Below, one piece after another: positions 29,011-62,249 of a stretch of DNA of 64,000 nucleotides. Position 1 is the first letter of the stretch. Every line of letters starts with the position of its first letter. The notes under the pieces were generated by a model. It made no database searches. It saw only the letters and a list, made by a program, of their open reading frames with translations, and was not told where the DNA came from. The stretch is from Takakia lepidozioides (taxonomy: Eukaryota; Plantae; Bryophyta): positions 83,142,001 to 83,206,000 of the forward strand of contig CM060731.1 in the NCBI GenBank assembly GCA_030704615.1. Direction: 5' to 3'. The position numbers and the translations under genes were made by a program.

Positions 29011-29095
29011 TGTCGTGCGCATACATATCGCACACAACTACATCGTTGTCCAAACCACACCACACATATATGCACAATAAAGTAGTCTGCCACAA
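29011..29095 (-). repeat. Terminal segment B of copy A (PPT AGGGGGGCGA at 29096-29105)
   Basis: Near-identical to 61301-61391 and 61744-61829. Confidence 0.9.
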
Positions 29096-32300: not shown

Positions 32301-32495
32301 CTTCAGTGCTCCTAAGTCCTTCAAACTGAAGGCAGAGCAATTCCTGTAAGCCCTCAGGAACCGCCGTATACGTCGTCTCTCTCCTTCGGTGACAATGGGT
32401 CCAACATCAGGCTCCCAGTTGTCCTCCCGTGACTGCAACCTTAAGTCCAGTGGGCTTAGAGGTAGAGGACGCGTCCCGTGGTTGCTATGCCGCAA
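29354..32495 (-). pseudogene. pol: RT, RNase H, integrase, C-terminal PHD finger (copy A)
   Basis: YIDDIIIFS; LHTDWS/SSYEGECLA; HEELGH...CMVC; SLDFAG/TDQGREF/GLAER; C4HC3 PHD CMLC...CDRC...WHMGC...WLCPHC. A few stops and frameshifts are present. Confidence 0.93.
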
Positions 32496-35400: not shown

Positions 35401-36661
35401 TCCATGCCCATACTTGCCACAATGCCCACACTGCAACTGTGCAGCTGTGCTTGTGCCGGCCTTTTGCCACTCTCTGGGCAATCTCTCTTGACATGGGGTC
35501 CTCCACATGTCCAACATATCACCCCTGGTTGTTGTTGGCTTGCAAAAGATGCTACTGGCCTCTGCACCCGAGGTCGCCTGTAAACTCCATGAAATTTGGG
35601 TTGGGAAACCTTGGCCCCCTGACCACGCTGTTGGGCAGTCCCTTGTGCCTGTGGGCTGGCAGCTGCGCCTCGTGCAGGCATGTCTTTGCCAAATCCAATG
35701 GTAACAACTCGCTCCTCCACCATGTTGAGCTCAATCCGCTCAGCCAGCAGAAACACATCTGCTAATGTGGGTTGGGCTGCTTGTAACAGGGTTGCATCTC
35801 GCACCCTTCTCCTGAGCTCCTTGTCCAAAATTCCATACCAGAACTGGATTGCCTGAGCTTCAGTAACCCCTTGGGTCACACTTATCAAGCGCCTCATACG
35901 AGTGTAGGCCTCTCGCAAGCTCTCAATGGGTTTGCGCTGGAAGTCTTGCAAATTTCGCAGCTTCTCTGTCCGTATACCTTGGTAGTTCCTCCGCAACTCC
36001 TGGAAGAACTCCACCACCGGGTTGAATCTAGGCACATGTGTTGTAGTCGTGGCAGGAGGAGTAGTAGCACCTTTTGAACTGGTACCACCTGAGAAGTACC
36101 GGCACTACTTGTTCCACTACTAGTGCTAGCAGTGGGAGATATTGGTACTGATGCAGCTACTGGTCGCGTCGTGCCTCGAGTAATGGAGACGTAGTCAGGT
36201 GACCAATACGTCCTCCACTCCTCAATCTCTGCTTCATGTCCTCGCCTGAACTCGTGGTAATCGTCCATAGGCGGGCCTTCCAAATGCTGGAACAGTCCCT
36301 TCCACGCCATGAATGGGGTGAATAGCTGTGGATTGCGCATCTGCTGCAAATCACACCAGCTGTCGAACTCCTGGATAAAGTCATCCAACTTGATTGTGCC
36401 CACAGCTCCAGAGTACCTACGAGGCCCCTTGGTAGCTCCATACATCTTCTCCATGTCGTCCCACAACAATGGCGAATGAAACTGCACACCTGTTGATGAA
36501 GCCTCTGAGTTTGTGTCTGACTCTGCACTAGTTGAGGGTGGAGGTGAAGGTGGTCTGAAACGAACACCTCGTCTGGTGAACCCACTCTCACTGTTACTGC
36601 CTGTAGCCGTACTCCCCTCAGAACCCCTAGGTAACTCCGTGATGACACTCACAATGTACAC
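32485..36661 (-). pseudogene. gag-protease-C5 DNA methyltransferase ORF (copy A), frameshifted
   Basis: Gag core, CWTCGGPHVKRDC and CGHCGKYGHGDAQC knuckles, VLLDSGAQ protease. MTase motifs: LDLFGGISTG, AGWPCQ, ENV, RAHRPRLWWTN, LGQAMD. Confidence 0.9.
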
Positions 36662-37190
36662 CTCCCCTACGTGACACTATAAGGCTCTATTACTGATTCT
36701 AATAGTGACACGGGTGGGCACCTGTTGCAGTTTAAGGGTCATATCCCAGTGGCTCAGGGCACCTGCACCTACATCCACCGCAAGAACTCATATGGTTGGC
36801 TGGTCATCAACCCAGTCTCACCATAGAAGAAACACTGGTGGTCTTGCTGGTCATCACTCCAGCCTCACCACCGACAGCATACTCTAGGATTGACCGGTGA
36901 TCAAATCCGGCCTAATCCCTATGAAAGCAAGTGCCCACACAAAACCAACATGGTGCACAGTCAAGCATGCAGGTGTTGGGGGGGATCCAAACACAAGAAA
37001 TCAAAACATCAACACCCCAACACCAAAATCCATCTGCAATGCTGATCTTGCAGAATATCCCAGCCCAAAACCCCGGACTGACTGGCCTCCACCAAGAGAG
37101 GCTTTGGCAACTACAAGTACAAAGTAATGAAAATAGTAAAGAGAGGGAGGGGAAGAATAGAAGCCCGACCAAGCAAGATCTAATCCTGAT

Positions 37191-37940
37191 CTATGCTATC
37201 AACTGCCAGACTTCTCTCAAAGTGCCTCGCTCTGCATGATGGTAAGGTGTAGGCGGTACATCTATGTCCAGAAACCTGCCACTAACCTTGTCCCAAGCTA
37301 CAGTAGCTCGCTCTAACCAACCCTCCTCCTCTTTCTGCCTGGTAGAGACAAAGCAATACTCCCCTATCTCCCGCTCACTGAACACTAAAGAAAACAAAGG
37401 TAGGGTCTGATAATCTCTCAACTCGAAAGCTTTGAGACGGTTGTGGGTGTTCTCATTGCGGATGACTGCATCTCCTTCAAGCAAAACAAACTTGTCATTG
37501 CTAATGAACCCCCGCTCATGATTGCCTTGTGCAGAGCGTGTCCGGCTGCAACCATGTCTGATTGCACAAACTTGTGTAGCTCTTGCTCCTCTGCTCCAGT
37601 ATACCACGGCCTTGTGGCTGAACACCTTGGTACCCGGGGCTGTCTTTGGCTGTGTTCCAAGCCTAGCTTTTACCCACTTTGGTATTTCACCTACAGCTGC
37701 AGAACTGCTGGCTCCAACAGAGTTCTGACTGTCCAAAGCGATATTGAGACCCTCAACGCCAACTACAACAGTTTGTTGTCCACTGCTAATGTCTGACTCC
37801 CAGTATGCAATCAACTCGTCCAACTGTTCTCCACTCAAATCAGTCTGAGTTCCTTGGGAAACATAAATCTTGTCCCCTTGTGTGCACAGGCTAAGAGACG
37901 AGACCTGCCCTTCAATTACGTCCTCGTTTTCCCCAGCCAT
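37191..37940 (-). CDS. Extra upstream ORF of retroelement (249 aa, unknown function), copy A
   Basis: Intact, same length and near-identical to 52442-53191. Confidence 0.75.
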   Translation of the reverse strand: MAGENEDVIEGQVSSLSLCTQGDKIYVSQGTQTDLSGEQLDELIAYWESDISSGQQTVVVGVEGLNIALDSQNSVGASSSAAVGEIPKWVKARLGTQPKTAPGTKVFSHKAVVYWSRGARATQVCAIRHGCSRTRSAQGNHERGFISNDKFVLLEGDAVIRNENTHNRLKAFELRDYQTLPLFSLVFSEREIGEYCFVSTRQKEEEGWLERATVAWDKVSGRFLDIDVPPTPYHHAERGTLREVWQLIA

Positions 37941-40350
37941 ACAAGGAGGACATCCACAGATTTGTCTCTCATATAGACCAGAACAGGTTCTAAAAACAGA
38001 ATTGTGGATCTTTCACGGCACACTCACACTCTAAAAATTCCATAGATTTTTAGCAGAGTCCCAAAAACAAAAACCCTAAACCCTAAACAAAAACCAGGTC
38101 TAGATAGGTAGATATTCCCTTTCTATAGCTATCCCCTCAAAAACTGAGTCAAACGGAGCTCATTTGACAAAGATGTGAACAATTTGGCTTTAAATCATTT
38201 AAATTAGATCAAAAGGGCCCTTTTTTTTTTTTTTTTAAAGGTTTTCGAATTTAAAAATTTAAAGTTACACCCAAAATATCTGGTAATTGGTTCCCGGTCC
38301 CCTAAGTTCTATATGGTTTCCTAGGTTCCCTGGCCACGTGCCCTATAATTCCTAGGATTTCAGTTGTGTTTACAAATGCACCCCCCACAGCTCTTGGTTA
38401 CCAGTGACCTGCTCTCCTCCAGTCGAGATCCGTAGCTATGCCGAGCCTTAATCCTTTGCACCAATATTCCCAACAAAAACAGGAGCACTTACAATGCAAC
38501 CCCGGAAAGCACCAGAGCTAACTAGCTTTGATCAAGAACGCTTACAGCCCTTCATGCGTGCTGATTTTTCAAGGTGGCAACAACAAATCTGCTATCACTG
38601 ATTGTGTAAGCCTTTACATGGAGTTGGCACAGGCTGCCCCCAAGTTCAGGATTGTAAACATAGACCGAGCAGGTCGTGTAGTGAGCTGGGCCCCTTCAGC
38701 TCATATCTCGCTCATACACCAAGTGTCACCTGGTGAGTCCACAGTCTCCCACTCTCATGCTCTCCTGCAACAAACACAACCTTGAGGTTCAATCCTCCAA
38801 AACCTGAGGATCGCCAGCCTGGGAGGTTGACACTGTCAGAAAGCGCCCCTCCCTTCCAGCAAATGGCCTAAGATGTGGTGACCTCGTCAATCCTTCCCTA
38901 GACTGCTCTTGCTTGGCCTTTCTCACAGCTGCCTGCACCTCTCAATCTGTGTGCCCATCCCCCTTCATAATGAGTATGACACACCCATCATCGTGCACAA
39001 CCTTTCATGCAAATGAGAGGGCATATACAATGTCCTTTGGGGTCCTCTAGTTCCAGTCTGGCACCTCATGGCCCATTCCAATTTCCAGGACATGAACACC
39101 ATGCAGAATGTCCGCTATGAGGGCGTTTGCGTAGGGTCCCAAGGGGGATTTTGCGCCAGCTTTGTATGGAATGAGGGCCAATGGTGTCACAGACTTCAGC
39201 CACACGTCAATAATCTCCTGCGAAACCCGCCAGGTGCTGGAACTTGATCTATCATGACCTTGTAATCTTCATACAAGCAAGTGACCCATGTCTTCCGAGG
39301 TTGTTCTTCTCCCAACGGCCGTGCAGCAAAATGGTTTGCCAAACAAATTCCGCTTGCTCCCTGAAAGGTTCAGACCCGCCAACTGCAAAGATATAAGTCG
39401 CCCTGCACCCGAATCTCTCTCCCCGTCGGTGGAGGCCTCCTGCATAGACTCGTCAGCTGTGGGCGTTCGACTACCAGGGCTGCCTGATATACTGGCTTTC
39501 AAAGCCTTCTTGCCCCCCTTTCAGGTTCGTTGCGGTTTGTTAGCCTCCCTCAGCAGCTGTTCAGCTTCATCTGCTCCTCTGGCGGCGGCTGCAGCGGACA
39601 CATTAGCTTGAACAAGGTGCCTGTGTGCCTGTGTTTCCTTGTCATGTAGACTCTTGGCTGTTGATGCGCTTGAGAACTCGTTGTGTTCCTCCATTTCTTC
39701 CAAGTGTTGGTACGATGTCGGGTTTGCAATCAAGCCACCAGGGGCAGTTTGGATTGGAAAACTGGCTGAATGACTTTAGTTGTTTCATGTTGAACGCTGT
39801 CACCTCCGTGAGCTCACTCACCCAAGTCAGCATCATGTTGGGTGTGGAGAGGATCAGCTTTATCTCCTGTCGTAAGTACTAAAGCACATTCGCTTTGCAG
39901 GTTGCAACGCGCCCTGCTGCTCGCTTAGCTCCACACTCCTGCGCATTTTCTCCTTTTCTCCGGCAGGTGCAGCAGCAGCACCTCCACCAGAGGAAGCCAC
40001 CACAACCAGGGATGACGCCACCCCAAACTGTTTGCACTTCGTGATCCAGCCACTGCCAGCCACTCCCGACTGTTTTGGGTCCGAATCCAAAATCTTACAC
40101 GAGTCTCGTCTCCCTCCGTCCAAGTGAAAGAGAGTAGGGAATTGCGGGGCCAACTATCAAAGTCTTCAACCTCCCCACCTCTTGGTTTTCAAACTCACGA
40201 GCAGAGACGACAACTAGATCTACGCGCACAGCCCATGGCAACAGGAAGGCCAGATGGACTCCTGCCCCAAGATATATATTATAATAGTGCTAAAACAAAC
40301 ATTGTATCTAGCTTAGCACTAGAAAACTAGATAGCCTCATCTCTCTCGAG

Positions 40351-40672
40351 TGATAAGAAAGCTAAAGGACACACTGTTCGCACAAGAAACATGAAATCCC
40401 TCAACATCACTCTTTCAGATAATAGTCGAGCCAGGGGCACCCCAAGCTATGGGGACTCCACCCCACAACAACCTATCCTCCCATCATAAGTACACTCAGT
40501 TCTAAACGATGAAGGAGCTCGGTCACGCAGGCTCAACTCGAGAGAGATGACGCTGTTCAGGTGTCAAACTAAACTTGACACCTGACTTAACACTTGGCTT
40601 AAATCCAAGTGTTAAATACAAATAACTAGCTTTATTCTAGTTAGTTTCACACTGTGCTTGTTTAACTTGACA
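40351..40672 (-). repeat. Terminal segment A of copy A (self-complementary PBS at 40336-40350)
   Basis: Homologous to 49989-50345 and 61394-61743. Reads TGTCAAG...TTATCA on the minus strand. Confidence 0.9.
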
Positions 40673-40676
40673 TCCT

Positions 40677-43542
40677 CCTTATCATCTCTAAACAACGTTG
40701 CCGTGTATCCACTCGAATTGCGGAACACCTGCCTCGAAACGACGGCTTTGTGCGAGCAATTCTCCACTGTGACACAGACACAGTCGTCTCCACAATGGCT
40801 TGGCCATACTGCATAATAGCGGGCGGAATCTGGGGCAAGCGAGCGGTGGGAATTTCTCGCACGGAATCCCCGCTTGAAGGCGATGGCGATCTGGAATTTC
40901 TTGGGCTTCCACTGCTGGAAGACACATTGTGTGGCAACATGACGGGCCCTCGAGGTGCTGTCCGAATGTTCCTATCGGATCTCCAGGAATCCTCTTCACA
41001 CCCAGGTTCCTCTTCAATCCTCCGCCTCACAGGGCGAGTACGTACGTCCCCCTCTAGGTGCTCACCTCTGTGGTGCAGAGGCGTCCCTTTGATCTTCTCT
41101 CGCAATGTTGTCGTCCATTTCAGTGGATTCTTCGACCTCGAAGTTGTTCGTACCAACAATTCCTCCCTGTCTGGCCCAAAGCCCCATTGTTTCCCGCTCA
41201 GGAACTTGAGTACATGGCTTGCTGCATGGTTGCTTTGTCGATGTCCTCCGTTGTGGCCGTCACTACGTCCACCAGATGTGCGGCAGAACACGCTCGCCAG
41301 GAGGAGTGCACTGATTCTGCCATATTCGTGTTCGGCATGTCTGTGTCGGAATCCAAGCACCGCTCCTACAAGGATACAAACAATGGTGAGGAACCAATGG
41401 AAAGGTCCGTAATAGAAAGACAATTGCACGAAAATGACAGCATCATACCTCCCGCATGTACTGTCCGAACTGTCGATACCGGAAATGCCACCACCCCAAC
41501 CAGCTGTGCAAGGCTCCCAGATTGGTTGTCTTCACTGCACCTGACGTGTTCCACCAAGCCTTGATGATAGCAAACTTAACCTCCACATCATCAAATGTGG
41601 GTGCATCCTTCCACGCCGTACAAAGGACACGGTGTTCAGCTTGGAATGAGCTAGCAACAAATTTGGTAGTGTAGTGAGATAGACTCTGCATCCAATGGAA
41701 TCCACAGGATCTCTCTTTCCCCTCCATTGGAACATTGGGGTCCTCACCGTACACACGCCGCACCGCTGCCCAGTTGGCCTGAGCGTTGTCTGCCATGAAT
41801 CCCCTGAAATTGGGCTCTGGCAATCCCGCCCTTGCCATCTGCTCGTTTATGCCCTCCCACAGATGCATCTCCAACTATGTGTCCTCCCCTTTCATCTCGC
41901 AGATTGCAATCGTCATGAGCCTCTTGGAGTGATAGTCATAAACATGCGCACCCATAGTCACCCACTGATGGTTTGTAATTCGCTTGAAGTGATCAAACAT
42001 CACCCAAGCATTCGACAAGTTTCCAGTTGTCATGCGAGTGACCAAGTCGACTCCACTCCCAGGCCCACACGTCGACATTTTAAAAATGTAACAACGATCG
42101 GATTCGCTGCCTTGCCCTGGAAACCTGCTACCTTGGATGTAGTCATATCCAGTCATTCGTTTCACCTCCAGGATTGAGTGCATGTCCGACCCCCGGCCGA
42201 ACTCCTGCTTGCAAGATACGATGTGATTCCGCACATTCGGACTACAAACGTGCGAGACGGACTCCAACAGGTCAAGCATCTCCTCTTCGTTCAAGGGCAC
42301 TCGGTCTGAACCATCTTCAAACATGATTTTGCCAAGAGCAATCTTGTGGGCTGCCTTCAGCTGAATCTGCTTTGGTCTGGCTCCGGGGCTCAATTTCACC
42401 TCCTCTTTTATGATGTCGTGTGCTTCTTGCACAACCTCACGCATGTTGCCTCTCGCCAAGGGGTGGCAGTGGACCCCAACATGTATGCAAGCTCTAGTCA
42501 AGTCCAGGAGCAAATGGATAACGTAATATTGCTTGGCTCTGCACATGGACATGCACGTCGGTGGTTCTTTGCAATGTGCGCACTTGAAAGTACCCGCAGG
42601 AGTTTGGCTGGAGACAATGAATGGATGATACGTTGTGCCAGTCCAATCCGTCTCGTTTCTCCGCCCTTCTTTGGAGAGAAAGTGGAAGCAGGCAGGATTG
42701 AGGCACCTCAGCTTCCCCGCACAGAGGACGTATCGTACACGAACACCATCAGCAATTTTCGTGCTACTGGTCTTCGTTACACACCAGGGGTGTCCATCAT
42801 GCTTTCGATCCATGTCTGTTAACATCCCTGAGGCTTTGTTTGAGGAAGTAACAGGTGGAAACTCGAAGATGACATTGCCATCGACTTCGGGAGGCAGATA
42901 CGTTACCTTCCTGACTGGAAATTTGGCATAGTCGAGAGCAGCCAGCTCGGAGCGAGAACCATCAAGGTGATGTTGCCGTAGGAACTGCACAATGGACCGG
43001 GTTGGAGTTATGCTCGAGGGTACATGCGTAGCACCTGCAGAGACGTCCATCTCGGATTTGAACGACCGTGTGGAGGACATGGGGACCTCAATGCACTCAT
43101 CTTCATCGTCGGAAATGTCGAATACGTCCACACGAGAAGCTATGGAGGGTCTTGACGGTTCAGGTCGGGAATGATTATCGTTGCATACCTCTCTATTGGC
43201 AGTGGCCGCCTGTCGGTTTCCGGACTCCTTTGTGGATGGTGTGGGCAGCGACTGATTCGGAAAGGGAATGGGCATTCCCACAGCTCGGTATAGGATGGTG
43301 TCTGATGGGGGTACGTGCCATTTGATTCCGCAACCTCTGTCGTTACCTAGCATGACAATGGTCTCGTCAACCTGTCCAGGAACATCCTTTCTTTCTTCTT
43401 CCAAATAAATTGTGCCCGGTTTGAGCTTGAATTTGGAACAAAGGTAAGTTTCAGTCACTCTGCAAAGTCCTCCCTTGTTTGGGATCCAGGCTCTCCCAAG
43501 TTGCAGAGGACAGCAAACTATAGCGTAGGAATTCGGAGCCAT
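40677..43542 (-). mobile_element. 5' part of Mutator-like DDE transposase with GCM/WRKY-like Zn DNA-binding domain
   Basis: DGHPW...CAGKLRCLNPAC...CAHC...C...HVGVHCHP is GCM-like. Catalytic motifs: WVMFDH (D), FMADNAQA (D), CGFHW (CxxH) and, after intron 41366-41448, PNTNMAESVHSSW (E). One in-frame TAG at ~41875. Confidence 0.8.
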
Positions 43543-43821
43543 CGAAGACCGCACGAAGTTGGCAAGTGTGAGGTTCAGTATAGCGACAGACCAAGGCTCA
43601 CAGGCACCTAGCGGAGTCCATGGACGATTGGAAGTCGCACATTGAAGTGGAAAGTATTGTTGTTAGCAGGTACACAATTGAGCAAGCATGAATCGAGGGT
43701 GAGGACGGTGCGACACATGAATAAGATGGAAGATGGAAATATGGAAATATGTTTACAAGAAATGAGCTGAAAAGCTCACAAGGGTTCAGTAGACTGACCC
43801 TGGGACCTACATGGACTAGGA

Positions 43822-45689: not shown

Positions 45690-46049
45690 TTCACCCGTCT
45701 TGGTGGGGCAACAAAGATAAAAGAAAAAGGTGGGGGGGGGGGGGGGGGGGGGAGTGACTAAGCACCACGGGCTCAGTCACTCCCCCCCCCCCCCCCGCCC
45801 ATTTTTTTTTTTTTTGTTTCCTGATCTCTCCCTCTCTGTCCCTCTGTCCCTCTCCCTCTCTCTCTCTCCCTCCCTCTTTTTTTTGTTGTTCACAAAAGTA
45901 AACAAACCACAAGGGAGAGAGGGTGCAGAAAAAGTTAAAAGATTGTACTCATAAGACGTTGTTTGCCGTAGCCTTGTGGCCATTGACCCCGCGCCCAGTT
46001 TGAGCGGAAACAAAAGGGACATAACTTGCCTTTGTCAGGGGCTGACGTT

Positions 46050-46640
46050 GGTAGTAAGACTTACCTTCATATATAGAATTAATCTGGGTTTTCCAGATAT
46101 CCTCTAGAAATCCCTTCACACAAGCATCAAACTGCTGTGTGTGATTTGCCCAATAACTAGGCCTCAGGAGGGCCTAGGCTTTTGGCTCAGCCTTGAGACT
46201 TTCAAAGTTGGTAAACAGAGGTACAGGCACAATTCCCTTGATAGATTTGAAGAGAGCATCTCTTTGGTGAGAGAACCCCGGACAGTGTATCAGAAAATGA
46301 GTACTGTCTTCAGATTGCCCACACAACGGGCAATTGCACTCTCCCTTTCCTCTCTACTTCTGTTTGCTGTTCAAAGGTAGGCTTCCTACCCTGAGTTTAA
46401 ATTTCAGTCTAGTGCCAAGAGTGGGTAGACCCTTGAGGTCATCCAAGATGTCCTCCCCCATGTCACTGACTGGAAACAAGTTCAGGGAAGTTTTCTGCCT
46501 AACTTCATTGTCATCAGACAATCTCATGGCAACAGACATGGGTTTGGACACTACAGCCTCTAAGTCAGATTTATCAACCCATATTGCAGATCCGTACTCC
46601 AAGGCAGGTCTAATAATGCGACAAAGCATGGTTGTCTTGA
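46050..46640 (-). mobile_element. Non-LTR retrotransposon 3' fragment (RT C-terminus + CCHC finger), copy 1
   Basis: IIRPALEYGSAIW; RLKFKLRVGSLPL; CPLCGQSEDSTHFLIHCP. Confidence 0.75.
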
Positions 46641-48610: not shown

Positions 48611-48739
48611 AAACAAAAAATCCACACTGATAGCAAACTGCCAATTCCCAGTACAGAGGGAGACAGAGGGAGAGAGGGGGCAACAATGAAAAAAAATGGG
48701 TTTGGGGGGGGGGAGGTCAGATGGTGGGATCAGCTGCAG

Positions 48740-49988
48740 CATATGTCCAACACCAGATATCCTAAGTTAATCAACTCCATATCTTGGAAACAGGACCGCC
48801 CACCGACCTGTCAAACAGGCTAAGTCTTGGCAGAAGACAGTAGAAAAGATTCTCAAGGACCTGGACCTGGAACCGCAAGTCTTCACCCTGCTGGATAAAT
48901 CTGACTTAGAGGCTGTAGTGTCCAAAGCCATGCCTGTTGCCATGAGATTGTCTGATGAAAATGAAGTTAGGCAAAAAACTTCCCTGAATTTGTTTCCAGT
49001 CAGTGACATGGGGGAGGACATCTTGGATGACCTCAAGGGTCTACCCACTCTCGGCAGTAGACTGAAATTTAAACTCAGGGCGGGAAGCCTACCTTTGAAC
49101 AACAAACAGAAGCAGAGAGGAAAGGGAGAGTGCAATTGCCCGTTGTGTGGGCAATCTGAAGACAATACTCATTTTCTGATACACTGTCCGGGGTTCTCTC
49201 ACCAAAGAGACGCTCTCTTCAAATCTATCAAGGGAATTGTGCATGTACCTCTGTTTACTAACTTTGAAAAAGTCGAGGCTGAGCCAAAAGCCCAGCCCCT
49301 TCTGAGGCCTAGTTTTTGGGCAACTCACACACAGAAGATTGATGCTTGTGTGAAGGGATTTGTAGAGGATATCTGGAAAACCCGGATTAATTCTATATGT
49401 AAAGGTAAGTCTTACTACCAACATCAGCCCCTGACAGAAGTAGGATCTGTCCCTTTTGTTTCCCCAAGAGAGGGGGCAACAAAGAAAAATAGAGAATGTG
49501 GGGGGGGGGAGTGACTGAGCATGCAACATATGTCCAACACCATATATCTTAAGTTAATCGACTCTATATCTTGGAAACATGACCGCCCACCGACCTGTCA
49601 AACAGGCTAAGTCCTAGTAGAAGACAGTAGAAGAGATTCTCAAGGACCTGGACCTGGAACCGCAAGTCTTCACCCTGCTGGATAAATCTGACTTAGAGGT
49701 TGTAGTGTCCAACCATGTCTATGGGCAACCTGAAGACATTATTCATTTTATGATACATTGTCCGGGGTTCTTTCACCAAAGAGACGCTCTCTTCAAATCT
49801 ATCAAGGGAATTGTGCATGTACCTCTGTTTACTAACTTTGAAAAAGTCGAGGCTGAGCCAAAAGCCCAACCCCTTCTGAGGCCTAGTTTTTGGGCAACTC
49901 ACACACAACAGATTGATGCTTGTGTGAAGGGATTTGTAGAGGATATATGGAAAACCCGGATTAATTCTATATGTGAAGGTAAGTCTTA
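48740..49988 (+). mobile_element. Two tandem non-LTR retrotransposon 3' fragments (copies 2 and 3); the second is internally deleted and is the target of retroelement copy B
   Basis: ORF 48918-49514 contains CPLCGQSEDNTHFLIHCP. 49520-49988 repeats it. The empty site GGTAAGTCTTACTACCA at 49404-49420 matches the flanks of copy B. Confidence 0.8.
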
Positions 49989-50345
49989 TGTCAAGTTAAA
50001 TAAGCACAGTGTGAAAACAGCTAGAATAAAACTAGTTATTTGTATTTAACACTTGGATTTAGGTCAAGTGTTAAATCAGGTGTCAAGTTTAGTTTGACAC
50101 CTGGTCTGTCTTATCTTCACGAGAGCGGCAGTCGCGCGGCTCATCTCTCTCGAGTTGAGCCTGCGCGACCGAGCTCCTGCATTGTTGAGGACTGAGTGTG
50201 CTTATGATGGGAGTGTAGGTTGTTGTGGGGTGGAGTCCCCATAGCTTGGGGTGCCCCTGGCTCGACTTCTATTTTAAAGAGTGATCTTGAGGGATTGCAT
50301 ATTTCTTGTGTTGAGAGTGTGTGTCCTTTACAAGTTTGTTTATCA
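49989..50345 (+). repeat. Terminal segment A1 of copy B
   Basis: Direct repeat of 61394-61743. Confidence 0.92.
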
Positions 50346-50361
50346 CTCGAGAGAGATGAGC
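50346..50361 (+). promoter_or_regulatory. Putative self-priming primer-binding site
   Basis: ACTCGAGAGAGATGAGC (50345-50361) is the exact reverse complement of 50139-50155 inside A1. There is no TGG tRNA-type PBS. Confidence 0.7.
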
Positions 50362-52441
50362 TCTTACCTGTGAGTGCAAGGTAGGAGTTGAGGGTTAGCA
50401 CTTGTATGATTACCTGTGTGAGAGTAGTGCTTAGTTTAAGAAGCTTTAAAATATATATATATATATATATATGCAGGTTTCGATCAGCGTTGGTTCTGGC
50501 ATAAGGCCGCCGGGCAGGACGGAGCTACACTGCATGGAAGCAGCCTTCGTTTTGGTCAGTGAGGAGATATCATGGTGGAGCAGCAGGATGATGCGCAAAT
50601 GTAAGGAAAACTGTGTCTGTTGGTAGCTGCTGACAACCGCAACTCTGTCCCTGGACTTCTTCTCCGGAGGTGGAAGCCTGTGTGCAGCGTGCATGCAAGA
50701 GTGTGGTTGTGACAGGGGAACAAGCGCTTGCGGTTGCATTACTACTGCAAGTTGGGCACTCGGTGCGTCGCTATAACTGCAATTGTACAGGAGCACTGTG
50801 AGAGGCAGATTGTTCTGCAGCCTTGCTATACCTGGTCAGTCCAATGGTGACACATCCATACCTTGTTAAAGCAATATGGACAGTTGTCGATGAGGACGGC
50901 TCTATGAAGGACACTGCGAGCTAAGAAGGGCTCGGGTACAAAAGCACACACTGGAGCGTTTAAGCAAGTTAGGGCGGGAAAAAGAAAAACAGGCCCAAAT
51001 AGCCAAGCACATGAAGTAGTGAATGTTGATGGAAGAAACCTGTGACACTCCCATTTTGCTGGAGGAGATCGTTGATTAATTGATGTCCCCGGAGCTTCAG
51101 GTGCAGGCCCTACAATCGCTGGCTAACAAGACTGATTTACAAGCAAAACCTGCAGGGCAATCTGCCGAGAGCCTCATCTGCTTCTCGGAGGGGTTTCCGT
51201 AAATGCCCAGCTTGTGCCCTGCCTGGGCAATAGGGGGAATCCCGCCTTCAGAACTTGGCTTTGGTGTACCAGAGAACTCTGCAACCTTTGGCGTTCCTTC
51301 TTTCCCAGGCCCTTGTGCCGACCTTCTCCAATGTGTCCTTGTCTCTCTCACCATCTGCTGCCTCGGAAAGCTCGCAGTGGAGACCTGCTTGCGGGCTGTT
51401 TTCTGGATTTAGAGTGGGTTTGAAGTATAGAAAAGAACTTGGAGATTACAGTGGGCAGGTCGCAGCCGGTGCGTCCTTGACGTGGAAGGCCACAACGGAG
51501 AGGAATGTGGTAGCCAGGGCTGCTGGAGATGCCCCAGAGTCAGAGGTCGAGATTGTTCCTGAGGTCACCATCCCAGCCATAGTTTCCCTCAAGTCAAAAG
51601 CATAATTGTTAAAGAAGAAGGCTAAACGATTGGAGCTTCGAAGGAAGAGGCTGGTGCGCAAGCGCAAGTTAAGGAAGAAAGGCCAATGGCCTCCTTCCAA
51701 AATGGCCAAAATCAAGAATGTATAGGGCCTCAGGAGGGTTCAAGGATAAGAAGAAAAGAAAGTTATCACGTCTGCGGGAGGTCCAACAGGTCCAAGGAGC
51801 ACACGTACAACACCACAGTAGAACCACAGACATCAAAAAAAAAAGCAGCTCAATTCTCAAACTTCACACACAACAGGTGTCGCAATCAACGGCCAAGCTC
51901 TTGTATGCTCTGCTCTGCTCCTGTTGTGCTGAATGTTGGTGAAGTGAAGCTGTGGTTCCGATGTGGCAGATGTGTTGTGCAAGTCCAGCAACCATCCACG
52001 AATCGTTCGATTGCAGGCCGCCTGTCCATAAGCCATGAGGGTGTTGCGCAGTGCATCTCTTGATCTGCTCTTGAAATCGCCCCTACCTGGACGAACTACC
52101 TGGACGTGTTGGGAACTCGTAGGTGACTTGGGAGCAGTTATAATGACAAAAGCGTTTTGGTGTTAAAAAAAAAAAAAACAAAGCCTTTTTGATCTAATTT
52201 AAATGTTTAAAGAGCCTGGTTGGTCATATCTTTGTCAAATGAGCTCCGTTTGACTCAGTTTTTGAGGGGATAGCTGCAGAAAGGGGAAATCTACCTATCT
52301 AGACCTGGTTTCTGTTTTTGGGACTCTGCTAAAAATCTATGGAATTTTTAGAGTGTGAGTGTGCCATGAAAGATCCACAATCCTGTCTCTAGAACCTGTG
52401 CTGGTCTATATTAGAGACAAATCTGTGGATGTACTCCTTGT

Positions 52442-53191
52442 ATGGCTGGGGGAAATGAGGACGTCGTTGAAGGGCAGGTCTCTTCTCTTAGCCTGTGTAC
52501 CAAAGGGGACAAGATTTATGTTTCCCAAGGAACTCAGACTGATTTGAGTGGAGAACAGTTGGACGAGTTGATTGCATATTGGGAGTCAGGCATTAGCAGT
52601 AGACAACAGACTGCTGTAGTTGGCATTGAGGGCCTCAATATCGCCTTGGACAGTCAGAACTCTGTTGGAGCCAGCAGTTCTGCAGCTGTAGGTGAAATAC
52701 CAAAGTGGGTGGAAGCTAGGCTTGGAACACAGCCAAAGACAGCCCCGGGGACCAAGGTGTTCAGCCACAAGGCCGTGGTGTACTGGAGCAGAGGAGCAGG
52801 AGCTACACAAGTTTGTGCAATCAGACATGGTTGCAGCCGGATACGCTCTGCACAGGGCAACCACGAGCGGGGGTTCATCAGCAATGACATGTTTGTTGTG
52901 CGTGAAGGAGATGCAGTCATTCGCAATGAGGACACCCGCAACCGTCTCAAAGCTTTCGAGTTGAGAGACTATCAGACCCTACCTTTGTTTTCTTTAGTGT
53001 TCAGTGAGCGGGAGATAGGGGAGTATTGCTTTGTCTCTACCTGGCAGAAAGAGGAGGAGGGTTGGTTAGAGCGAGCTACTGTAGCTTGGGACAAGGTTAG
53101 TGGCAGGTTTCTGGACATAGATATACCTCCTACACCTTACCATCATGCAGAGCGAGGCACTTTGAGAGAAGTCTGGAAGTTGATAGCATAG
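52442..53191 (+). CDS. Extra upstream ORF of retroelement (249 aa, unknown function), copy B
   Basis: Intact and conserved with copy A. Confidence 0.75.
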   Translation: MAGGNEDVVEGQVSSLSLCTKGDKIYVSQGTQTDLSGEQLDELIAYWESGISSRQQTAVVGIEGLNIALDSQNSVGASSSAAVGEIPKWVEARLGTQPKTAPGTKVFSHKAVVYWSRGAGATQVCAIRHGCSRIRSAQGNHERGFISNDMFVVREGDAVIRNEDTRNRLKAFELRDYQTLPLFSLVFSEREIGEYCFVSTWQKEEEGWLERATVAWDKVSGRFLDIDIPPTPYHHAERGTLREVWKLIA

Positions 53192-53709
53192 ATCAGGGTT
53201 AGATCTTGCTTGGGCGGGCTTCTATTCTTCCCCTCCATCTCTGTACTATTTTCATTACCTTGTACTTGTAGTTGCCAAAGCCTCTCTTGGTGGAGGCCAG
53301 TCAGTCCGGGGTTTTGGGCTGGGATATTCTGCAGGATCAGCGTTGCTGCTGGATTTTGGTGTGGGGTGTTGATGTTTTGATTTCTTGTGTTTGGATCCCC
53401 CCCAACACCTGCATGCTTGACTGTGCGCCATGTTGGTTTTGTGTGGGCGCTTGCTTTCATAGGGATTAGGCCGGATTTGATCACCGGTCAATCCTAGAGT
53501 ATGCTGTCGGTGGTGAGGCTGGAGTGATGACCAGCAAGACCACCAGTGTTTCTTCTATGGTGAGGCTGGGTTGATGACCAGCCAACCATAGGAGTTCTTG
53601 CGGTGGATGCAGGTGCAGGTGCCCTGAGCCATTGGGATATGACCCTTAGACTGCAACAGGTGCCCACCCGTGTCACTATTAGATTAGTACTAGAGCCTTA
53701 TAGTGTCAC

Positions 53710-56700
53710 GTGGAGGAGGTGCACATTGTGAGTGTCATTACGGAGTTACCCAAGGGTTTTGAGGGGAGTACGGCTACAAGCAGTGACAGTGAGAGTGGGT
53801 TCACAAGACGAGGTATTCGGTTCAGACCACCTTCACCGCCACCTTCAACTATTGTAGCGTCAGACACAGACTCGGAGGCTTCATCAACAGGTGTGCACTT
53901 TCATTCGCCATTGTTGTGGGACGACATGGAGGAGATGTATGGAGCTACCAAGGGGCCTCGTAGGTACTCTGGAGCTGTGGGCACAATCGAGTTGGATGAC
54001 TTTATCCAGGAGTTCGACAGCTGGTGTGATTTGCAGCAGATGCGCAATCCACAGCTATTCACCCCATTCATGGCGTGGAAGGGACTGTTCCAGCATTTGG
54101 AAGGCCCGCCTATGGACGATTACCACGAGTTCAGGCGAGGACATGAAGCAGAGATTGAGGAGTGGAGGATGTATTGGTCACCTGACTACGTCTCCATTAC
54201 TCGAGGCACGACGCGACCAGTAGCTGCATCAGTACCAATAGCTCCCACTGCCAGCACTAGTAGTGGAGCAAGTAGTGCTGGTACTTCTGAAGGTGGTACC
54301 AGTTCAAAAAGTGCTTCTCCTGCCACGACTACAACACATTGCCAAGATTCAACCCGGTGGTGGAGTTCTTCCAGGAGTTGCGGAGGAACTACCAAGGTGT
54401 ACGGACAGAGAAGCTGCGAAGTTTGCAAGACTTCCAGCGCAAACCCAGTGAGAGCCTGCGAGAGGCGTACACTCGTATGAGGCGCTTGATAAGTGTGACC
54501 CAAGGGGTTACTGAAGCTCAGGCAATCCAGTTTTGGTATGGAATTCTGGACAAGGAGCTCAAGAGAAGGGTGCGAGATGCAACCCTGTTACAAGCAGCCC
54601 AACCCACATTAGCAGATGTGTTTCTGCTGGCTGAGCGGATTGAGCTCAACATGGTGGAGGAGCGAGTTGTTACAATTGGATTTGGTAAGGACATGCCTGT
54701 ACGGGGCACAGCTGTCAGCCCACAAGCACAAGGGACTGCCCAACAGCGTGGTCAGGGGGGCAAGGTTGCCCAGCCCAAGTTCCATGGAGCTTACAGGGGA
54801 CCTCAGGTGCAGAGGCCCGTGGCATCTTTTGCAGGCCAACAGCAACCAGGGGTGATATGTTGGACATGTGGAGGACCCCATGTCAAGAGAGATTGCCCAG
54901 AGAGTGGCAGAAGGCCGGCACAAGCACAGCCTGCACAGTTGCAGTGTGGGCATTGTGGCAAGTATGGGCATGGAGATGCCCAGTGTTATGACTTGCATCC
55001 TGAGTTGCGCCCAGGCCAGTTCCAAGGGAACAATGGTGGCCGGGGGCGAGGTGGACCAGCCCAAAGAGGACGAGGTGGTCGGGCACGAGGTGCAGGCCAA
55101 GGGCAACCTCCACATGGCCAAGGACGCGGAGGTCAGGGTGTTGACCAAGGCATGGCCAATCGGCTTCAGCAGCTAGAGCAGAGGCTCGCTGCCATGGCTA
55201 TAGCTCAGGCGGTACCGGCTCCCAGGCGGGATGGTCCACCTCCTGCTCCTGAGGGAGGAGATATGGGAGGCATGGGATTCATGTGCGGAGCAGCACTACC
55301 ACTAGAGCAGGTGGAGTCTGCTGCAGCCGTGACTCGAGGAGCAGCACGAGTTCCTGAGCCACGAGGTGCAGAGGTGGAGTTGGATCCACAACGTGGGGAG
55401 GCAAGCCGTCAGGCGAGGCTGCCTCAGTCATTCACCTTGGCGGAGACAGTGTCAACGCCATCCATGGCACCTAGTTCTCGCCCGACTGTTACCGAGGCGG
55501 AGGTTACTATGCCATTGGGGAGAGCTACACGTGCAGCACTGACACCTGCTACCAAGGCTAGTGCAGCCGGTGTGTTATTGGGGGCAGCCACCTCTGTGTG
55601 TCAAGCCCCCTGTTCTCGGCGAACCATGATTGCGACGCCGGGAGTGAGACCAGCTGCAGTGTTCAGACTAGCAGCAACACTCTGCGAGAGTGGAGAGGTC
55701 ACTTCATCTTCTGCGGAGTTAGTGGAAGGTGTAGTGGCAGAGGGATCCTCGGATTTGAGGGTCAAGACTGCCACGGCAGCGCCCTGGCAAGCTGCAGCTG
55801 CCAGATTGACGGAGCTGCCAGCTAGGCCAGCCTTTGAGCGCGCCATGGTGACACCTGGAGTTGTCTTGTTAGACAACCAGGGAGGCATTTTCACTTTGAG
55901 TGGACCGGCAGGCAAGAAGTACCGGCCACTGCGGGTCTTGTTGGACTCAGGAGCTCAGCCACTGATGTTGGGCAGAGCTGCTATTGCAGGTTTGGGCCTC
56001 ATGGAGGCGGATATGGAGCCTTGTCCTTTCCAGATACAGACATCTCTGGGAGGATCAGAGCAGGCTCGCGGCATGACACGGCATCAGTTGGCTATTAGAC
56101 TGCAGCCGGATCATCCTGTAGATGGCTCAGTGATGCGAGCCAAGGCCATTGTGACAGACGCGGTCTCTTACGATGTCCTCGTTGGTGGGGCAGTGTTATA
56201 CCCCATGGGCTTCACCCTGGATTTCTGGGAGGAGTCAGCATCCTACAGGCCTGGATGGCAGTCAGGGGATGGTCGCCGTGCACAGCTCCCTGTGACATTC
56301 ATTGGGGGTATTGCAGCTGCTCAGCGGGGCAAGATGCCAACACTAGCCGCCTTCACAGCTGCAGTCAGCTGGCCTGGAGAGTTGCTGGAAGGCAATGCCC
56401 ATGCAGAGGATGTGCCACCTCCAGCAGAGCAGGATGACATGCATGGTACGGCGGAGTTGCCTGCCATGGTTGCTCACACTCCGTTGTGGGGTACGAGCAA
56501 GGATTTGCAGCACGCTGCTGATGGACGGGTGCAACAAGCTTGGGTAGAAGCTTTTGTACCGTCAGGAGAGGAGGAGAGTGCGGTGATTGTACCAGGGCCA
56601 CCTCAGTTGTCGCCATTGGACACCACACCTCTTGTGTGGCAGCGACCGGATGAAGGCATATGCCTTCTGGACTTATTTGGCGGGATCAGCACTGGATTGG

Positions 56701-57904
56701 CTGCAGTGCTGCAGGCAGGTGTACGAGTTCGACGTTACCTGTATGTGGAGAGGGATGAGACTGCACGACGCGTCTCACTGCGCCATGTTGCTCAGATGGT
56801 GCAGCAGCACCCTGAGTTGTTGCCGGTGTCTGCAGTTCGTGGATATCAACAAGCCTTGCCAGCAGACATTGCGTTGCTGGGGGCGCAGGATTTGGAGCGG
56901 TTGGCTCCATTGATCTGGTAGTGGCAGGTTGGCCCTGCCAAGGGCATTCATCAGCCGGGCATGGCAATGGATTGCGAGACTCGAGGACGGGTCTGTTTTG
57001 GGAGATGGTGCGGATTTTGCGCCACTTGCAGCTTCATCAAGCTGTATCTCCGGCATACATCTTGGAGAATGTGCCACTGATGGGTGATTCTCGGGCCAGG
57101 GTGATGGCCAGTGTGCATCAAGTCCGGTCGTGGCTTGGGTCAGCAGTATTGCTGGATGCAGCTGCAGTGGGGTCACGGGCTCATCGTCCACGACTATGGT
57201 GGACTAACTTGATGCCACCCGCACTGCTCAAGCGTGCATTTGATGGGGTGCAGCGGCCAGCACACCTCACCGTGGATGGCATTTTGGACACAGGAAGGCA
57301 GTCTCAACGTGTGAGACACGATGACCGTTCGCCTTTGGCAGTGGTCAACAGGGTGGGTCAACCACGAGCAGCATTACCTACACTGCTCAGCTTCCCAGGA
57401 TCCCATGCTTTTCGGGATGGTGGACCTGGCCTCCTGTGGGATGCTCAGTTGCAGCAGTTAGTGGAGCCTAATGCCGACGAGCGAGAGCGGGCTATGGGGT
57501 TTTCCACTGGGACCACGGCGGTGCCTTCTCTTTCTGAGGCATCACGTCGTCAGGTGTTGGGGCAAGCAATGGATCTCAATTGCTTGACCTGGATTGTCAG
57601 CTTGGCTATGGCTGAGCAACGTAGAGTGCGGAGTGCACTTCCCTTGATGGTCTCTCTGCCTACCGAGACGGTACAGGCAGCGAGTGGGGGCGAGCCGGTG
57701 AGGACCACGAGGTGTAGACATCCATGGCACATGTGGGAGGTGCTCGAGGTTCAGAGGGAGTTGGCAGCGAAGGCAGCTGTGATGGATGAGGTTGGGGATT
57801 CTTCTCGGGATGAGGAGGTTCTCAATGATGAGATGATGGGGCAGGATGAGGCCTTGTCATTGACTGAGCAGGAAGGGGGTACTGCTCAAGAGGTTGCAGC
57901 ATAG
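53710..57904 (+). CDS. gag-protease-DNMT3-like C5 methyltransferase polyprotein (copy B; two small frameshifts)
   Basis: ORFs 53710-54480, 54339-56921 and 56921-57904. MTase domain ~56655-57610 carries motifs I, IV (PCQ), VI (ENV), VIII (RxR), IX (ERAMGF) and X (LGQAM). Confidence 0.9.
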
Positions 57905-60900
57905 CAACCACGGGACGCGTCCTCTACCTCTAAGCCCACTGGACTTAAGGTTGCAGTTACGGAGGACAATTGGGAGCCTGATTTGGACCCATTGTCACCG
58001 GAGGAGAGAGACGACGTATACGGCGGTTCCTGAGGGCTTACAGGAATTGCTTTGCCTTCAGTTTGAAGGACTTGGGAGCACTGAAGGGTCAAGAGATCCG
58101 TATTGAGTTGGCCACTGACACGCCAATCTTTCGGAGACCCTATAGATACAGTGACATGGAGAGGTCTTTGATTCAGATGAGGACTCAAGATCTCTGGGAG
58201 GCAGGTTTGGTGGAGCTCTCTGGTGGAGAGTATGCTTCAGCCACAGTGATGCCAGCTAAGAAGGATGTCTATGGCAATTGGACGGAGAGACGTATGTGCG
58301 GTGATTACCGGCCTGTAAATCGTCAGACCAAGTCCGATAGGTATGCCATGCCAACACCAGAGGAGATCTTTGATGCCATTGGGCATTCCAAGGTCTTTAG
58401 CACGTTGGATTTACGATCCGGATATCACCAGTTGCCGATCAAGGAGGCGGATAAGCAAAAGACGGCATTCTGGGGGATCAATGAGCACGGGAAGGATTGC
58501 CTATACCAGTGGCGGTTCTTACCATTTGGGCTTAAAAACGCTCCCGCTGAGTTTCAAAGAGTCATGGACAGGATTCTAGCAGGGGTGGAGTTTGCTCGGT
58601 GCTACATAGATGACATCATCATCTTTAGTGCTACGGTGGAGGAGCATGAGAGACACCTTCAGGGGGTATTTGAGCGCTTGAGGACGCACGGATTGAAGTT
58701 ACATCCGGGCAAGTGCAAGTTTTTCCACAACCAGATTGAGTATCTGGGGTCACATGATATATCCTGGAGGATTGGGGGTACAGCAGACTAAGGTAGAGTC
58801 CATTGCACAGGTTCCACGCCCCACGGATGTGAGCCGAGTTCGAGCTTTCATGGGGTTAGCAAACTATTACAGACGGTTTGTTAAGGGATTTAGTGCCATT
58901 GCAAAGGCTCTAACCAAGCTGACCAAGGTGGACCAGGAGAGTGGCAGTGGGAAGATGAGCAAGAACAAGCTTTTCAAGAGCTCAAGGCGAGGTTGACCTC
59001 GGCGCCCATCTTGAGACGACCTATCAGGGGGCGTCCTTTTCAGCTGCATACAGATTGGAGCATGCTGGGGCTTGGAGCGGTGCTCACACAGGTGGATGAT
59101 GAGGGAAGAGAGTTCGTAGTGGCTTATGCTAGCCGCTCGAACAATGCTGCAGAGTCTAAGTATAGCTCATATGAGGGAGAATGCTTAGCTGCAGTGTGGG
59201 CCGTGGCACACTTCAGGTGCTATTATACGGCAATCTCTTCACCCTTGTCACGGATCACCAACCACTCAAGTGGTTGATGGAGTCAGACAAGCTTACGGGG
59301 AAGCTTGCACGGTGGGCACTCATCCTTCAAGAGTATGACTTTCAGGTGGTGCATCGACCGGGTTTGGTCAATCGAAATGCAGATGGGTTGAGTCGCAATC
59401 CATGCACGAGCCAGCAGGATGACACTGGAGCTCGGTGGCATGGTGAGACGGACGAGGAGATGGTGCCCGGATGGCATGCATCTGCATTTCTGTGTATCTT
59501 GGCAGCGGAAGGCCAGGTTGGACCTACAACAGGGATGACTGTAGATCAAGTGTCTGAGGACCCTGAGGCCAGCAATGAGCAGGGTGGCGCCAAAGATATA
59601 CATGAGGATTCAGTTGTGTTGGACTACCTCCGCAGTGGAGACACGGCAGCCACTATGACTGCCAAGGAGAGGGATCGGATCCTACAACGAGCCAAGAGGT
59701 TCAGGTGGGAGGGGACACACCTGCTCCGAGTGTGGGAGGATGGTCGAGTGAGGATTGTGCCTCACCCAACACAGCGGGCACGGTTAGTGCGGCATGCCCA
59801 TGAGGAGTTGGGGCATTTTGGGGTGCGACGCACTCATAGTCTACTGCAGGGGCAGTATTGGTGGCGTGGTATGCACACAGAGGTACAATATTTGTGGCTA
59901 GGTGCATGGTGTGTGACAGGGTGCGTGCTTCATTCAACGCCCCTACTCCACAATTGCACCCTCTTCCGATCATGGGATTGGGCTACAGGTGGAGTCTTGA
60001 CTTCGCAGGGCCGTTGCCACTGACCATGCGCCACAACAAGTACGTGTTGGTGATGGTGGAGCACTTCTCCAAGTGGATTGAATTGGTTCCATTGCCTGAT
60101 AAGGCTAGTGAGGGAGCTGCGTATGCATTCCTGGATTGTGTGCTTAGCCGATTCGGTGCTCCAGCTGAGGTACTCACGGACCAAGGGAGAGAGTTCTTGG
60201 GGGAGTTTCAGGCTTTGTGTGACAAGGCCTTGATAGACCACCGCACCACTTCTCGGGATCATCCTGAAGCCGATGGCTTGGCAGAGAGAGTTGTTCAGAC
60301 AGTAAAGAGGGGTTTGCGCAAGTATGGCTTGCAGAAGGGACACCTAGGAGATTGGGACCTTCAGTTACCCTGGTTAGCCATGGGCTACAGGTTCAGCAAG
60401 CAAGCATCACTTGCCTCCTTCTCACCATACTTTCTTCTCTTTGGCCGAGAGCCGGATTTGCCTACATCCATTCGCAGAGAAGCTGCTACAGTTCTTAACC
60501 TTGACGATCCGGACGTGTGGGCACGTGCATGTGAGCAGCGTGCAGAGTTGTTCAAGAGAGTCATGCCTATGGCTTTCGAGAACCTTGCCATTGCACAACA
60601 CCGTGATACGTTGAGGTATGCTACCATACGTGGTGGGGGCTATCGTCCTGGGGTTCGGAGATTCAACCCTGGTGACTATGTCTATCTGCAGCAGACTGCT
60701 CCTACGACCCTGGATGTGACTGCAGGACGTGTTATTTGAGGGTTCGAGAGGTCTTGCCCTCAGGCGTCTTGGTCTTGGAGGGTCGGGATGGCAATTGGAA
60801 GGACCATGTGCGTAATTGTGCGCCATGTCACCTTCCGAATGTCGATGGCAGGATTGACCCAAACCTGGCAGTGGTATCTGCAGGTTTGAGGTGCATGTTG

Positions 60901-61037
60901 TGTGGGTCTGCTAAAGGGGCAGCCACCATGCTGGTGTGTGTGATCGGTGCTCTAGAGGTTGGCATATGGGATGCTTGACTCCACCTCTTGAGATGGTTCC
61001 GGATGGGGATTGGTTATGTCCACATTGCATTGGATAG
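57905..61037 (+). CDS. pol: RT, RNase H, DDE integrase, PHD finger (copy B; several small frameshifts)
   Basis: Same motifs as copy A. The indels fall at different positions in the two copies, so a consensus is open. Confidence 0.9.
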
Positions 61038-61290
61038 TGGGGAGTGGATACAACCATGGGAGGCTAACAAGAAACGCAAGGCCCAGCTACTAGGAGACCT
61101 TGAACACACGAGTCCTGGCTCAAGTTCACAGATTGCAAGACGGCGACTAACGATGGGGCTACTCTTGTACCCGGCCTCTTGGTTGATAGAGTTTGAGTAC
61201 GATAGGGACAGTGATAGAGGACTTAGTACGGCTGTGGCTATTACTTACATCTTGTAGCTATCTGGAGGTAGGGGGACCTATCCACCAGCT

Positions 61291-61300
61291 AGGGGGGCGA
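61291..61300 (+). promoter_or_regulatory. Polypurine tract
   Basis: AGGGGGGCGA immediately precedes segment B in both copies. Confidence 0.75.
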
Positions 61301-61829
61301 TTGTGCAGACTACTTTATTGTGCATATATGTGTGGTGTGGTTTGGACAGCGATGTAGTTGTAGTTGTGTAGCGATATGTATGCGCACGACAGCTGTCAAG
61401 TTAAATAAGCACAGTGTGAAAAAGCTAGAATAAAACTAGTTATTTGTATTTAACACTTGGATTTAGGTCAAGTGTTAAATCAGGTGTCAAGTTTAGTTTG
61501 ACACCTGGTTGTCTTATCTTCACGAGAGCGGCAGTCGCGCGGCTCATCTCTCTCGAGTTGAGCCTGCGCGACCGAGCTCCTGCATTGTTGAGATCTGAGT
61601 GTGCTTATGATGGGAGTGTAGGTTGTTGTGGGGTGGAGTCCCCATAGCTTGGGGTGCCCCTGGCTCGACTTCTATTTTAAAGAGTGATCTTGCGGGATTT
61701 CATATTCTTGTGTGAGAGTGTGTCCTTTACTAGTTTGTTATCATTGTGCTAGACTACTTTATTGTGCATATATGTGTGGTGTGGTTTGGACAGCGATGTA
61801 GTTGTGTAGCGATATGTATGCGCACGACA
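61301..61829 (+). repeat. 3' terminal structure B1 (61301-61391) - GC - A2 (61394-61743) - B2 (61744-61829)
   Basis: Read directly from the sequence. The B1/A2 junction is the palindrome GACAGCTGTC (61388-61397). The A2/B2 junction is TTATCA|TTGTG. Confidence 0.92.
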
Positions 61830-62249
61830 CTTACTACCAAACGTTTAGCCCCTCTGCACTGGCTGACAGAGGTAGGATCTTGTCCCTTTGTTCCCCAAGA
61901 GAGGGGGCACAAAGAAAAACAGAGGAATAGGGGGGGTGAGTGCTACGCAAGCAGCCCAGCTGCTCAGTCAACCCCCCCCCCACCCCCCACCCCCCAACAC
62001 CTTCTTTTCTTTCTTTGTTGCCCCCTTTGATGTACTACCTATCTATACCTCTCTCTCCCTCTGGACACGGGCTTATGGAATTGTTGTCCAGACCTTCCAT
62101 CCTGAGGAAAAAGGCAAAAAAACAAGTGCAAAAATTGGGTTTGCAGGGAATTTTGGATAATTTTTATCCCAAATTTTTATTTTTTATTTTTTAGTGAAAT
62201 ATTTCTTCACTAAAAAACTTATGAGTTGAAAAACTCCCGTCAGTTTCTA

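Follow-up and report, generated by a model that had tools for sequence, protein, structure and literature searches.

The 64,000-nucleotide window analysed here, from contig CM060731.1 of the bryophyte Takakia lepidozioides, contains two copies of a Gypsy-type retroelement whose inserted ends do not coincide with the ends of the repeat that is copied by reverse transcription. Copy 1 (49989-61829, forward strand) reads, between two CTTA duplications, as A, primer-binding site (PBS), internal region, polypurine tract (PPT), B, the dinucleotide gc, A, and B. Together with the ends of related loci, this layout strongly supports the conclusion that the inserted ends are, very probably and throughout the clade, internal attachment sites located in the middle of the long terminal repeat (LTR). 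As the most likely route we propose a joined-end circular intermediate that would be opened by the DDE integrase at an internal palindrome, a reading to which we assign a probability of roughly 0.65. From the sequence we infer both the covalent closure of this circle and its cleavage by the integrase of the copy itself.

Repeat layout and inserted ends of copy 1

All stranded features of copy 1 lie on the forward strand. Its leftmost part, A1 (49989-50345), is the right part of the reverse-transcription LTR; it starts with TGTC, the left attachment end, and is followed by the PBS (50346-50361), an arrangement repeated in copy 2 and in relatives. A 17-nt reverse-complement match to the PBS within A1 (50139-50155) indicates self-priming and marks a candidate transcript 5′ end and self-primer. 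On the opposite side, the PPT (61291-61300, at an equivalent position in relatives) precedes B1 (61301-61391), the left part of the same LTR, which ends with GACA; A2 (61394-61743) and B2 (61744-61829) complete the element, the terminal GACA of B2 being the right attachment end. A1 and A2 are 96% identical, and B1 and B2 differ by indels only, with zero substitutions over 85 aligned bases. Since the PPT is located 5′ of B1 and the PBS 3′ of A1, the repeat copied by reverse transcription is B-gc-A. The inserted ends of copy 1 (TGTC... and ...GACA) correspond to the halves, minus the central GC, of the palindrome GACA-GC-TGTC (61388-61397, unstranded), in which two attachment ends stand head to head around a 2-base spacer and whose exact sequence, GACAGCTGTC, has a single occurrence in the window. 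At the A2/B2 joint (61738-61748), TTATCA is followed directly by TTGTG, so that the end preceding the PBS abuts the one that follows the PPT. The original prediction, made from the sequence of copy 1, had claimed this layout, the fusion of the PBS-defined and PPT-defined ends, and the loss of the central GC, all of which the repeat alignments and the sequence bear out.

The CTTA duplication that bounds the element (49985-49988 and 61830-61833) is real, since CTTA is single in two paralogous empty sites within the window and public contigs from three of four runs read from 49988 straight into empty-site sequence. The PBS and PPT set the ends of the linear DNA copy where B starts and where A ends, and the inserted ends are elsewhere, so that the integrase must use internal sites. 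Likewise, the A...BAB layout implies that the right end of the DNA copy must be joined to its left end. In the light of what is established for DDE enzymes, the CA ends, the lost 2-base spacer, and the 4-base duplication would fit ordinary DDE chemistry.

The host site of copy 1 (46006-46575, 48671-49988, and 61830-61942) is itself a short repeat of which there are several copies; a weak zf-RVT match (E value 0.04) makes it resemble the 3′ end of a long interspersed nuclear element. Public contigs of run X3 join a truncated B or A (at 61386 and 61566) to the PPT-defined start of B, which adds to the imprecise joints in this organism, and another contig, of 1875 bases, departs from the element precisely at 61391.

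Ends, duplications, and palindrome among relatives

Relatives were drawn from 538 confirmed metagenome loci, of which the best 80 were taken. Scoring 45 of these 80 loci and the two window copies yielded 35 distinct 3′ ends, and the distinct 5′ ends number 12 (9 clean and 3 degenerate). Thirty-five loci were left out due to an early contig end, an interrupted or degenerate 3′ region, the lack of a family reference, or a B-A running into the 5′ region; six loci whose PPT-B-A extends as far as the contig end or enters the 5′ region (L009, L038, L052, L056, L058, and L061) served for the palindrome only and were excluded from the layouts. The CA of the internal palindrome is the stop point in 34 of the 35 3′ ends, whose last four bases are GACA (24), AACA (9), TACA (1), or AATA (1). 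All 12 5′ ends start with A and none has B upstream of A, in agreement with the near absence of full B-A repeats at this end anticipated in the original prediction. Two of the layouts foreseen there, A...BAB and A...B, were both recovered (17 3′ ends with BAB and 18 with B alone). The third, ABA...B, failed to appear in any of the 12 5′ ends. A 4-bp target-site duplication, also proposed from copy 1, flanks all nine complete distinct elements, five exactly and four with one mismatch (32 of 36 bases match); as a control, at least three matches occurred in 3 of 72 cross-pairings, and lengths of 2, 3, 5, 6, and 7 were at background.

Repeats A and B are mutually unalignable among five families at an E value of 0.01, yet the palindrome is retained. 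Its exact sequence is found 110-175 bases past the PPT in four loci (L038, L052, L056, and L058) with integrase identities of 49-53%, and L061 carries the symmetric variant GGCA-GC-TGCC. The internal spacer measures 2 bases in 17 of 17 cases (GC in 7, AC in 6, AT in 2, and GT in 2). Loci with the palindrome occur in both of the branches separated by the deepest split in an integrase tree (37 rows, rooted at the midpoint only), in which L056 clusters with proteins of Chromochloris, Volvox, and Pleodorina (support 98/88). Viral contigs contained no relatives, either by protein or by palindrome pattern. We see even odds that these elements represent an ancient Gypsy clade, extending from chlorophyte algae to bryophytes, in which joined-end (circular) DNA would have become the obligatory integration substrate, the attachment sites would have moved to an encoded GACA-GC-TGTC, and opening would be biased to the site that yields the replicative copy.

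Several further observations concern these sequences. The palindrome core, CAGCTG, contains two symmetric CHG sites, and the variants present in old copies (AC, GT, and AT spacers; GATA and TATC arms) show the pattern expected from the decay of methylated CHG; it is tempting to speculate that host methylation shields inserted palindromes from re-cutting. In L047 (3510-4700) and in L049, the PBS-defined end of A is fused to an inverted methyltransferase region of the same element, which resembles a product of inversion-type autointegration or of end joining. Two more BAB ends of the gamma family are located in the flanks of L014 (13660-14150) and L068 (1050-1590, reverse strand), outside the 35 counted.

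A proposed joined-end intermediate and other possible routes

In the cycle that we propose, an A...BAB copy would be transcribed from inside A and self-primed, reverse transcription would produce B-gc-A-internal-B-gc-A, and both ends of this product would be joined imprecisely into a molecule similar to a 2-LTR circle. The integrase would then nick after CA on both strands, opening the palindrome of the PBS-side repeat and leaving recessed CA ends with 2-base 5′ overhangs, and strand transfer with a 4-base stagger, followed by repair, would generate A...BAB. The A...B copies would originate from a right-hand nick at the other B or from a 1-LTR circular intermediate and, being devoid of a 3′ R region, would be dead ends as templates.

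Imprecise A/B joints are expected from end-joined circles, and manual reading of 17 joints revealed added or lost bases in 7 of them (4 with 1-2 extra bases, 2 with deletions, and 1 with an insertion of ~20 bases, the other 10 being precise), the small offsets hinging on the placement of the end of A. The joints look newly formed at each insertion. The distance between B1 and B2 is smaller within than between elements (0.075 versus 0.088, and 0.086 versus 0.118). The B2 sequences do not form any group separate from B1, and the A1/A2 and B1/B2 divergences agree inside each of six elements, which would follow from repeats that did not differ at the time of insertion.

Several results weigh against this proposal. 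A symmetric 2-LTR-circle model with equal opening is rejected (twice the log-likelihood difference 9.05, P = 0.0026; P = 0.0015 with L050) by a test that assumes independent copies and no assembly bias and that has only 3-4 informative copies; ABA...B, the product of opening the other palindrome, is never seen, and the invariable choice of the PBS-side A as the left end is not accounted for by the proposed cycle. The 3′ ends of L047 and L049 lie at the PBS-defined end of A, followed by their own internal sequence inverted, so that this end is sometimes used or joined. The nearest neighbour of B2 is its own B1 in four of nine beta elements and in none of six alpha elements (a weak test). Finally, symmetry beyond the 10-base core of the palindrome is modest, the covariation score being reached by 9 of 500 shuffles and the other measures being non-significant. 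The observations are compatible with a left end that does not vary and a right end at either B. The bias may stem from 1-LTR intermediates mixed with 2-LTR circles that are opened preferentially at one site, from a template jump on one strand, or from a later collapse of ABA.

Internal sites could also be used without any ligated circle, which we consider possible though unlikely. The reverse transcriptase would jump from the right end to the left end of the linear copy and extend one strand through B, the integrase would cut at the internal sites, and A...B copies would derive from linear DNA nicked in both repeats and trimmed of its flaps. Such a jump would prefer one layout, matching the lack of ABA...B, and it fits the 4 of 17 joints with 1-2 added bases, but the two-sided joint deletions and the ~20-base insertion (L039, L062, and L023) look like host end joining. 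In favour of such a route, Tf1 cDNA retains its self-primer, which could block one-strand ligation.

A less probable scenario combines equal opening of a 2-LTR circle with a subsequent collapse of ABA...B to A...B via the long A repeats, or has all copies starting as A...BAB and half of them losing A-B. Equal opening predicts a 1:1 ratio, compatible with the 17 BAB and 18 B ends, and A is longer than B, closer repeats recombining easily. However, the collapse requires a near-total loss of ABA while BAB survives, neither the 80 loci nor the window yielded a solo AB, and B-only copies are not significantly older than BAB copies (P = 0.14, 17 versus 15 copies). Copying in the manner of Ngaro/PAT elements, with the complete A...BAB passing through RNA, the joint being inherited, and the integrase acting on ordinary linear TGTC/GACA ends, seems very improbable: Ngaro has the identical A1...B1A2B2 layout, as described in PMC8547959, and most joints are precise, but the PBS and PPT are located at the other ends of A and B, joints differ inside one family, B2 copies are not grouped apart from B1, and A2B2 is missing from half of the copies. 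Last, an assembly artefact, a normal BA...BA element that was rearranged later, or a tyrosine recombinase provided in trans is largely refuted, since 17 distinct BAB ends from four families have diverged repeat copies, 4-bp duplications bound the permuted unit, empty sites are confirmed, and no recombinase was found in the frames of the window copies, even though public contigs do not bridge the A2/B2 joint of copy 1 (the last 50 bases of A being barely covered), metagenome assemblies can collapse repeats, and B-A runs into the 5′ region or a contig end in six loci.

Coding regions, copy 2, and known systems

Copy 1 starts its internal region with a 5′ untranslated region (50362-52162) that is private to it, being unshared with copy 2 and of low depth in public contigs. 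The coding part comprises gag, an aspartic protease, and the start of a methyltransferase (53704-56921, with zinc knuckles, an LLDSG motif, and a weak Pfam gag match), a C5 cytosine methyltransferase domain within pol (56816-57904; PF00145, E value 1.2e-12, and motifs), a reverse transcriptase (RT) and RNase H (57982-59340), and an integrase with zinc finger and rve core followed by a PHD finger (59760-61030). In the two window copies, both with broken frames, Pfam detected gag and protease (both weakly), the C5 methyltransferase, RT, RNase H, the integrase zinc finger, the rve core, and the PHD finger; the domains follow the order gag-protease-RT-RNase H-integrase with the methyltransferase between protease and RT. 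Among solved structures, the RT of copy 2 has its best match in Ty3 RT (E value 2.4e-65, versus 1.6e-39 for the next kind), and the integrase has its best match in Ty3 integrase (1.9e-14). The integrase of copy 2 is a single open frame (29354-30547) with the DDE triad D52, D112, and E147, with 34 residues from the second D to the E. None of the 88 + 84 frames (at least 60 aa) of the two window copies encodes a tyrosine recombinase, so that the DDE integrase without such a recombinase, as originally predicted, holds. A 258-aa frame upstream of gag (52415-53191), of unassigned function, is open in both window copies (93%) and has one distant homologue (P0217); it was not found in the 80 related loci, had no Atlas match, and gave an unusable single-sequence structure model (predicted local distance difference test score 32). 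Its candidacy as a circle-opening enzyme was rejected as a general cause given its absence from all 80 loci.

Copy 2 (29011-40672, reverse strand) has the layout A-PBS-internal-PPT-B with an AGGA duplication on both sides. It is 95% identical to copy 1 across 9270 bases, with an A region just 82% identical and an unrelated 2-kb 5′ region; 5′ modules thus appear to have been swapped between subfamilies. Copy 2 splits a long reading frame (28282-29010 and 40674-43662, reverse strand) that is in phase across one AGGA and for which Pfam gave no match; a CxCxD...CKH motif further downstream hints at a MULE/SWIM-type transposase. Elsewhere in the window, arrays of a 53-base unit (higher-order 106/159) at 13100-14700 and 20300-21300, with dispersed copies, are built on the near-palindrome GGAAATGCGGCACCGCATTTCC, and a Myb/SANT-like domain at 638-1126 (forward strand; PF13837, E value 3e-6) possibly belongs to a Harbinger-type transposon partner gene.

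The element has the structural traits of Ty3/Gypsy, namely a PBS after the 5′ repeat, a PPT before the 3′ repeat, and a short target-site duplication, and lacks identical full LTRs at both ends matching the PBS- and PPT-defined ends; with B at 0 of 12 5′ ends, it is classed as a Gypsy-type variant and not as a canonical member. Copy 1 and 16 other BAB ends show the A1...B1A2B2 repeats of Ngaro/PAT elements (DIRS order), copy 2 being A...B. Those elements have a tyrosine recombinase instead of a DDE integrase and are not known to make target-site duplications; here the integrase is of the DDE type and a 4-bp duplication flanks 9 of 9 complete elements. With the Tcn1/Tf1-sushi group the element shares a self-priming PBS (the match spans 11-17 nt in 7 of 11 5′ ends, is limited to 8 nt or absent in 3, and is degenerate in 1), and the chromodomain of that group was not found after the integrase, where a PHD finger (E value 5.9e-10) occurs instead. 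An active PHD-bearing Gypsy of Chlamydomonas, Gypsy-7a_cRei, is reported in bioRxiv 2022.06.16.496473. A C5 methyltransferase in a Gypsy pol combined with DIRS-like repeats, as present here, is the mark of the KnitGypsy-Dnmt3 group. The relatives that carry a name belong to liverworts, Sphagnum, Coleochaete, and chlorophytes, with no Klebsormidium sequence named among the matches, and the closest named methyltransferase relatives (P0162-P0192) are proteins annotated in Marchantia polymorpha, Calypogeia fissa, and Sphagnum fallax, which means that methyltransferase-bearing Gypsy elements occur in land plants, some of them inside gene annotations.

LTR circles are usually regarded as dead ends or a reserve, and circle integration is thought to be a side path. 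The elements described here provide a natural system in which circles as true integration precursors become testable, their genomic copies recording an insertion route with the cut site apart from the cDNA ends. A DDE integrase able to open a defined 10-base site and insert the molecule could also be of interest as a tool. Lacking matching terminal repeats beside the duplication, these elements would likely be missed or mis-cut by structure-based finders, such as the one of REXdb (described in PMC6317226). They are nevertheless abundant here, and represent a DDE element converging on the Ngaro layout.

Bacterial DNA transposons of the IS3 and IS30 families have a DDE enzyme that opens two abutted ends, the short spacer between them being lost; their transposase makes the junction, whereas here it is encoded in a repeat copied via RNA. 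The original prediction knew of no Gypsy element with the proposed mechanism. As to the layout, this does not stand: KnitGypsy-Dnmt3 of Klebsormidium nitens was described as having Gypsy domains with the repeat structure of DIRS elements, A-coding-B-A-B (de Mendoza et al. 2018, PMC5890265), so that A...BAB in Gypsy is already published, the integration mechanism apparently not. Going by that description, our element resembles KnitGypsy-Dnmt3 in its Gypsy domains, the cytosine methyltransferase in pol, and the DIRS-like repeats; the text of the account is silent on the ends, a duplication, a palindrome, an A...B class, and the mechanism. As to the mechanism, the literature searched, which left subscription journals, Repbase, theses, figures, and bioRxiv supplements outside its scope, yielded no description of the palindrome, of the A...B class, or of how integration proceeds.

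With canonical self-priming Ty3/Gypsy elements of the Tf1/sushi/Tcn1 type, as characterized in PMC6317226, the element shares the domain order, Ty3-like RT and integrase, PPT, self-priming PBS, 4-bp duplication, and CA ends; it departs from them in that the inserted ends differ from the reverse-transcription ends, the end repeats are non-identical, a PHD finger replaces the chromodomain, and a methyltransferase is present. With the split-direct-repeat Ngaro/PAT elements, following their description in PMC8547959, it shares the A1...B1A2B2 layout and, likely, a joined-end intermediate, but it differs from them in the DDE integrase, the lack of a tyrosine recombinase, the target-site duplication, and the A...B layout of half of its copies. 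A biochemical parallel comes from retroviruses: HIV-1 integrase nicks each strand of an internal palindrome after CA, in a reaction that requires the catalytic glutamate (as reported in PMC1905944), and circles of foamy virus and of HIV can be opened again (PMC1180852, PMC4372172). A DDE integrase that cuts in a comparable way, after CA on each strand of an internal palindrome, is what the sequence suggests for our element. In the retroviral accounts, however, the palindrome is the joint of the cDNA ends and its cleavage a side path leading back to a normal provirus, whereas here the palindrome is separately encoded in the middle of the LTR, its opening would apparently be the main route, and the insert is permuted.

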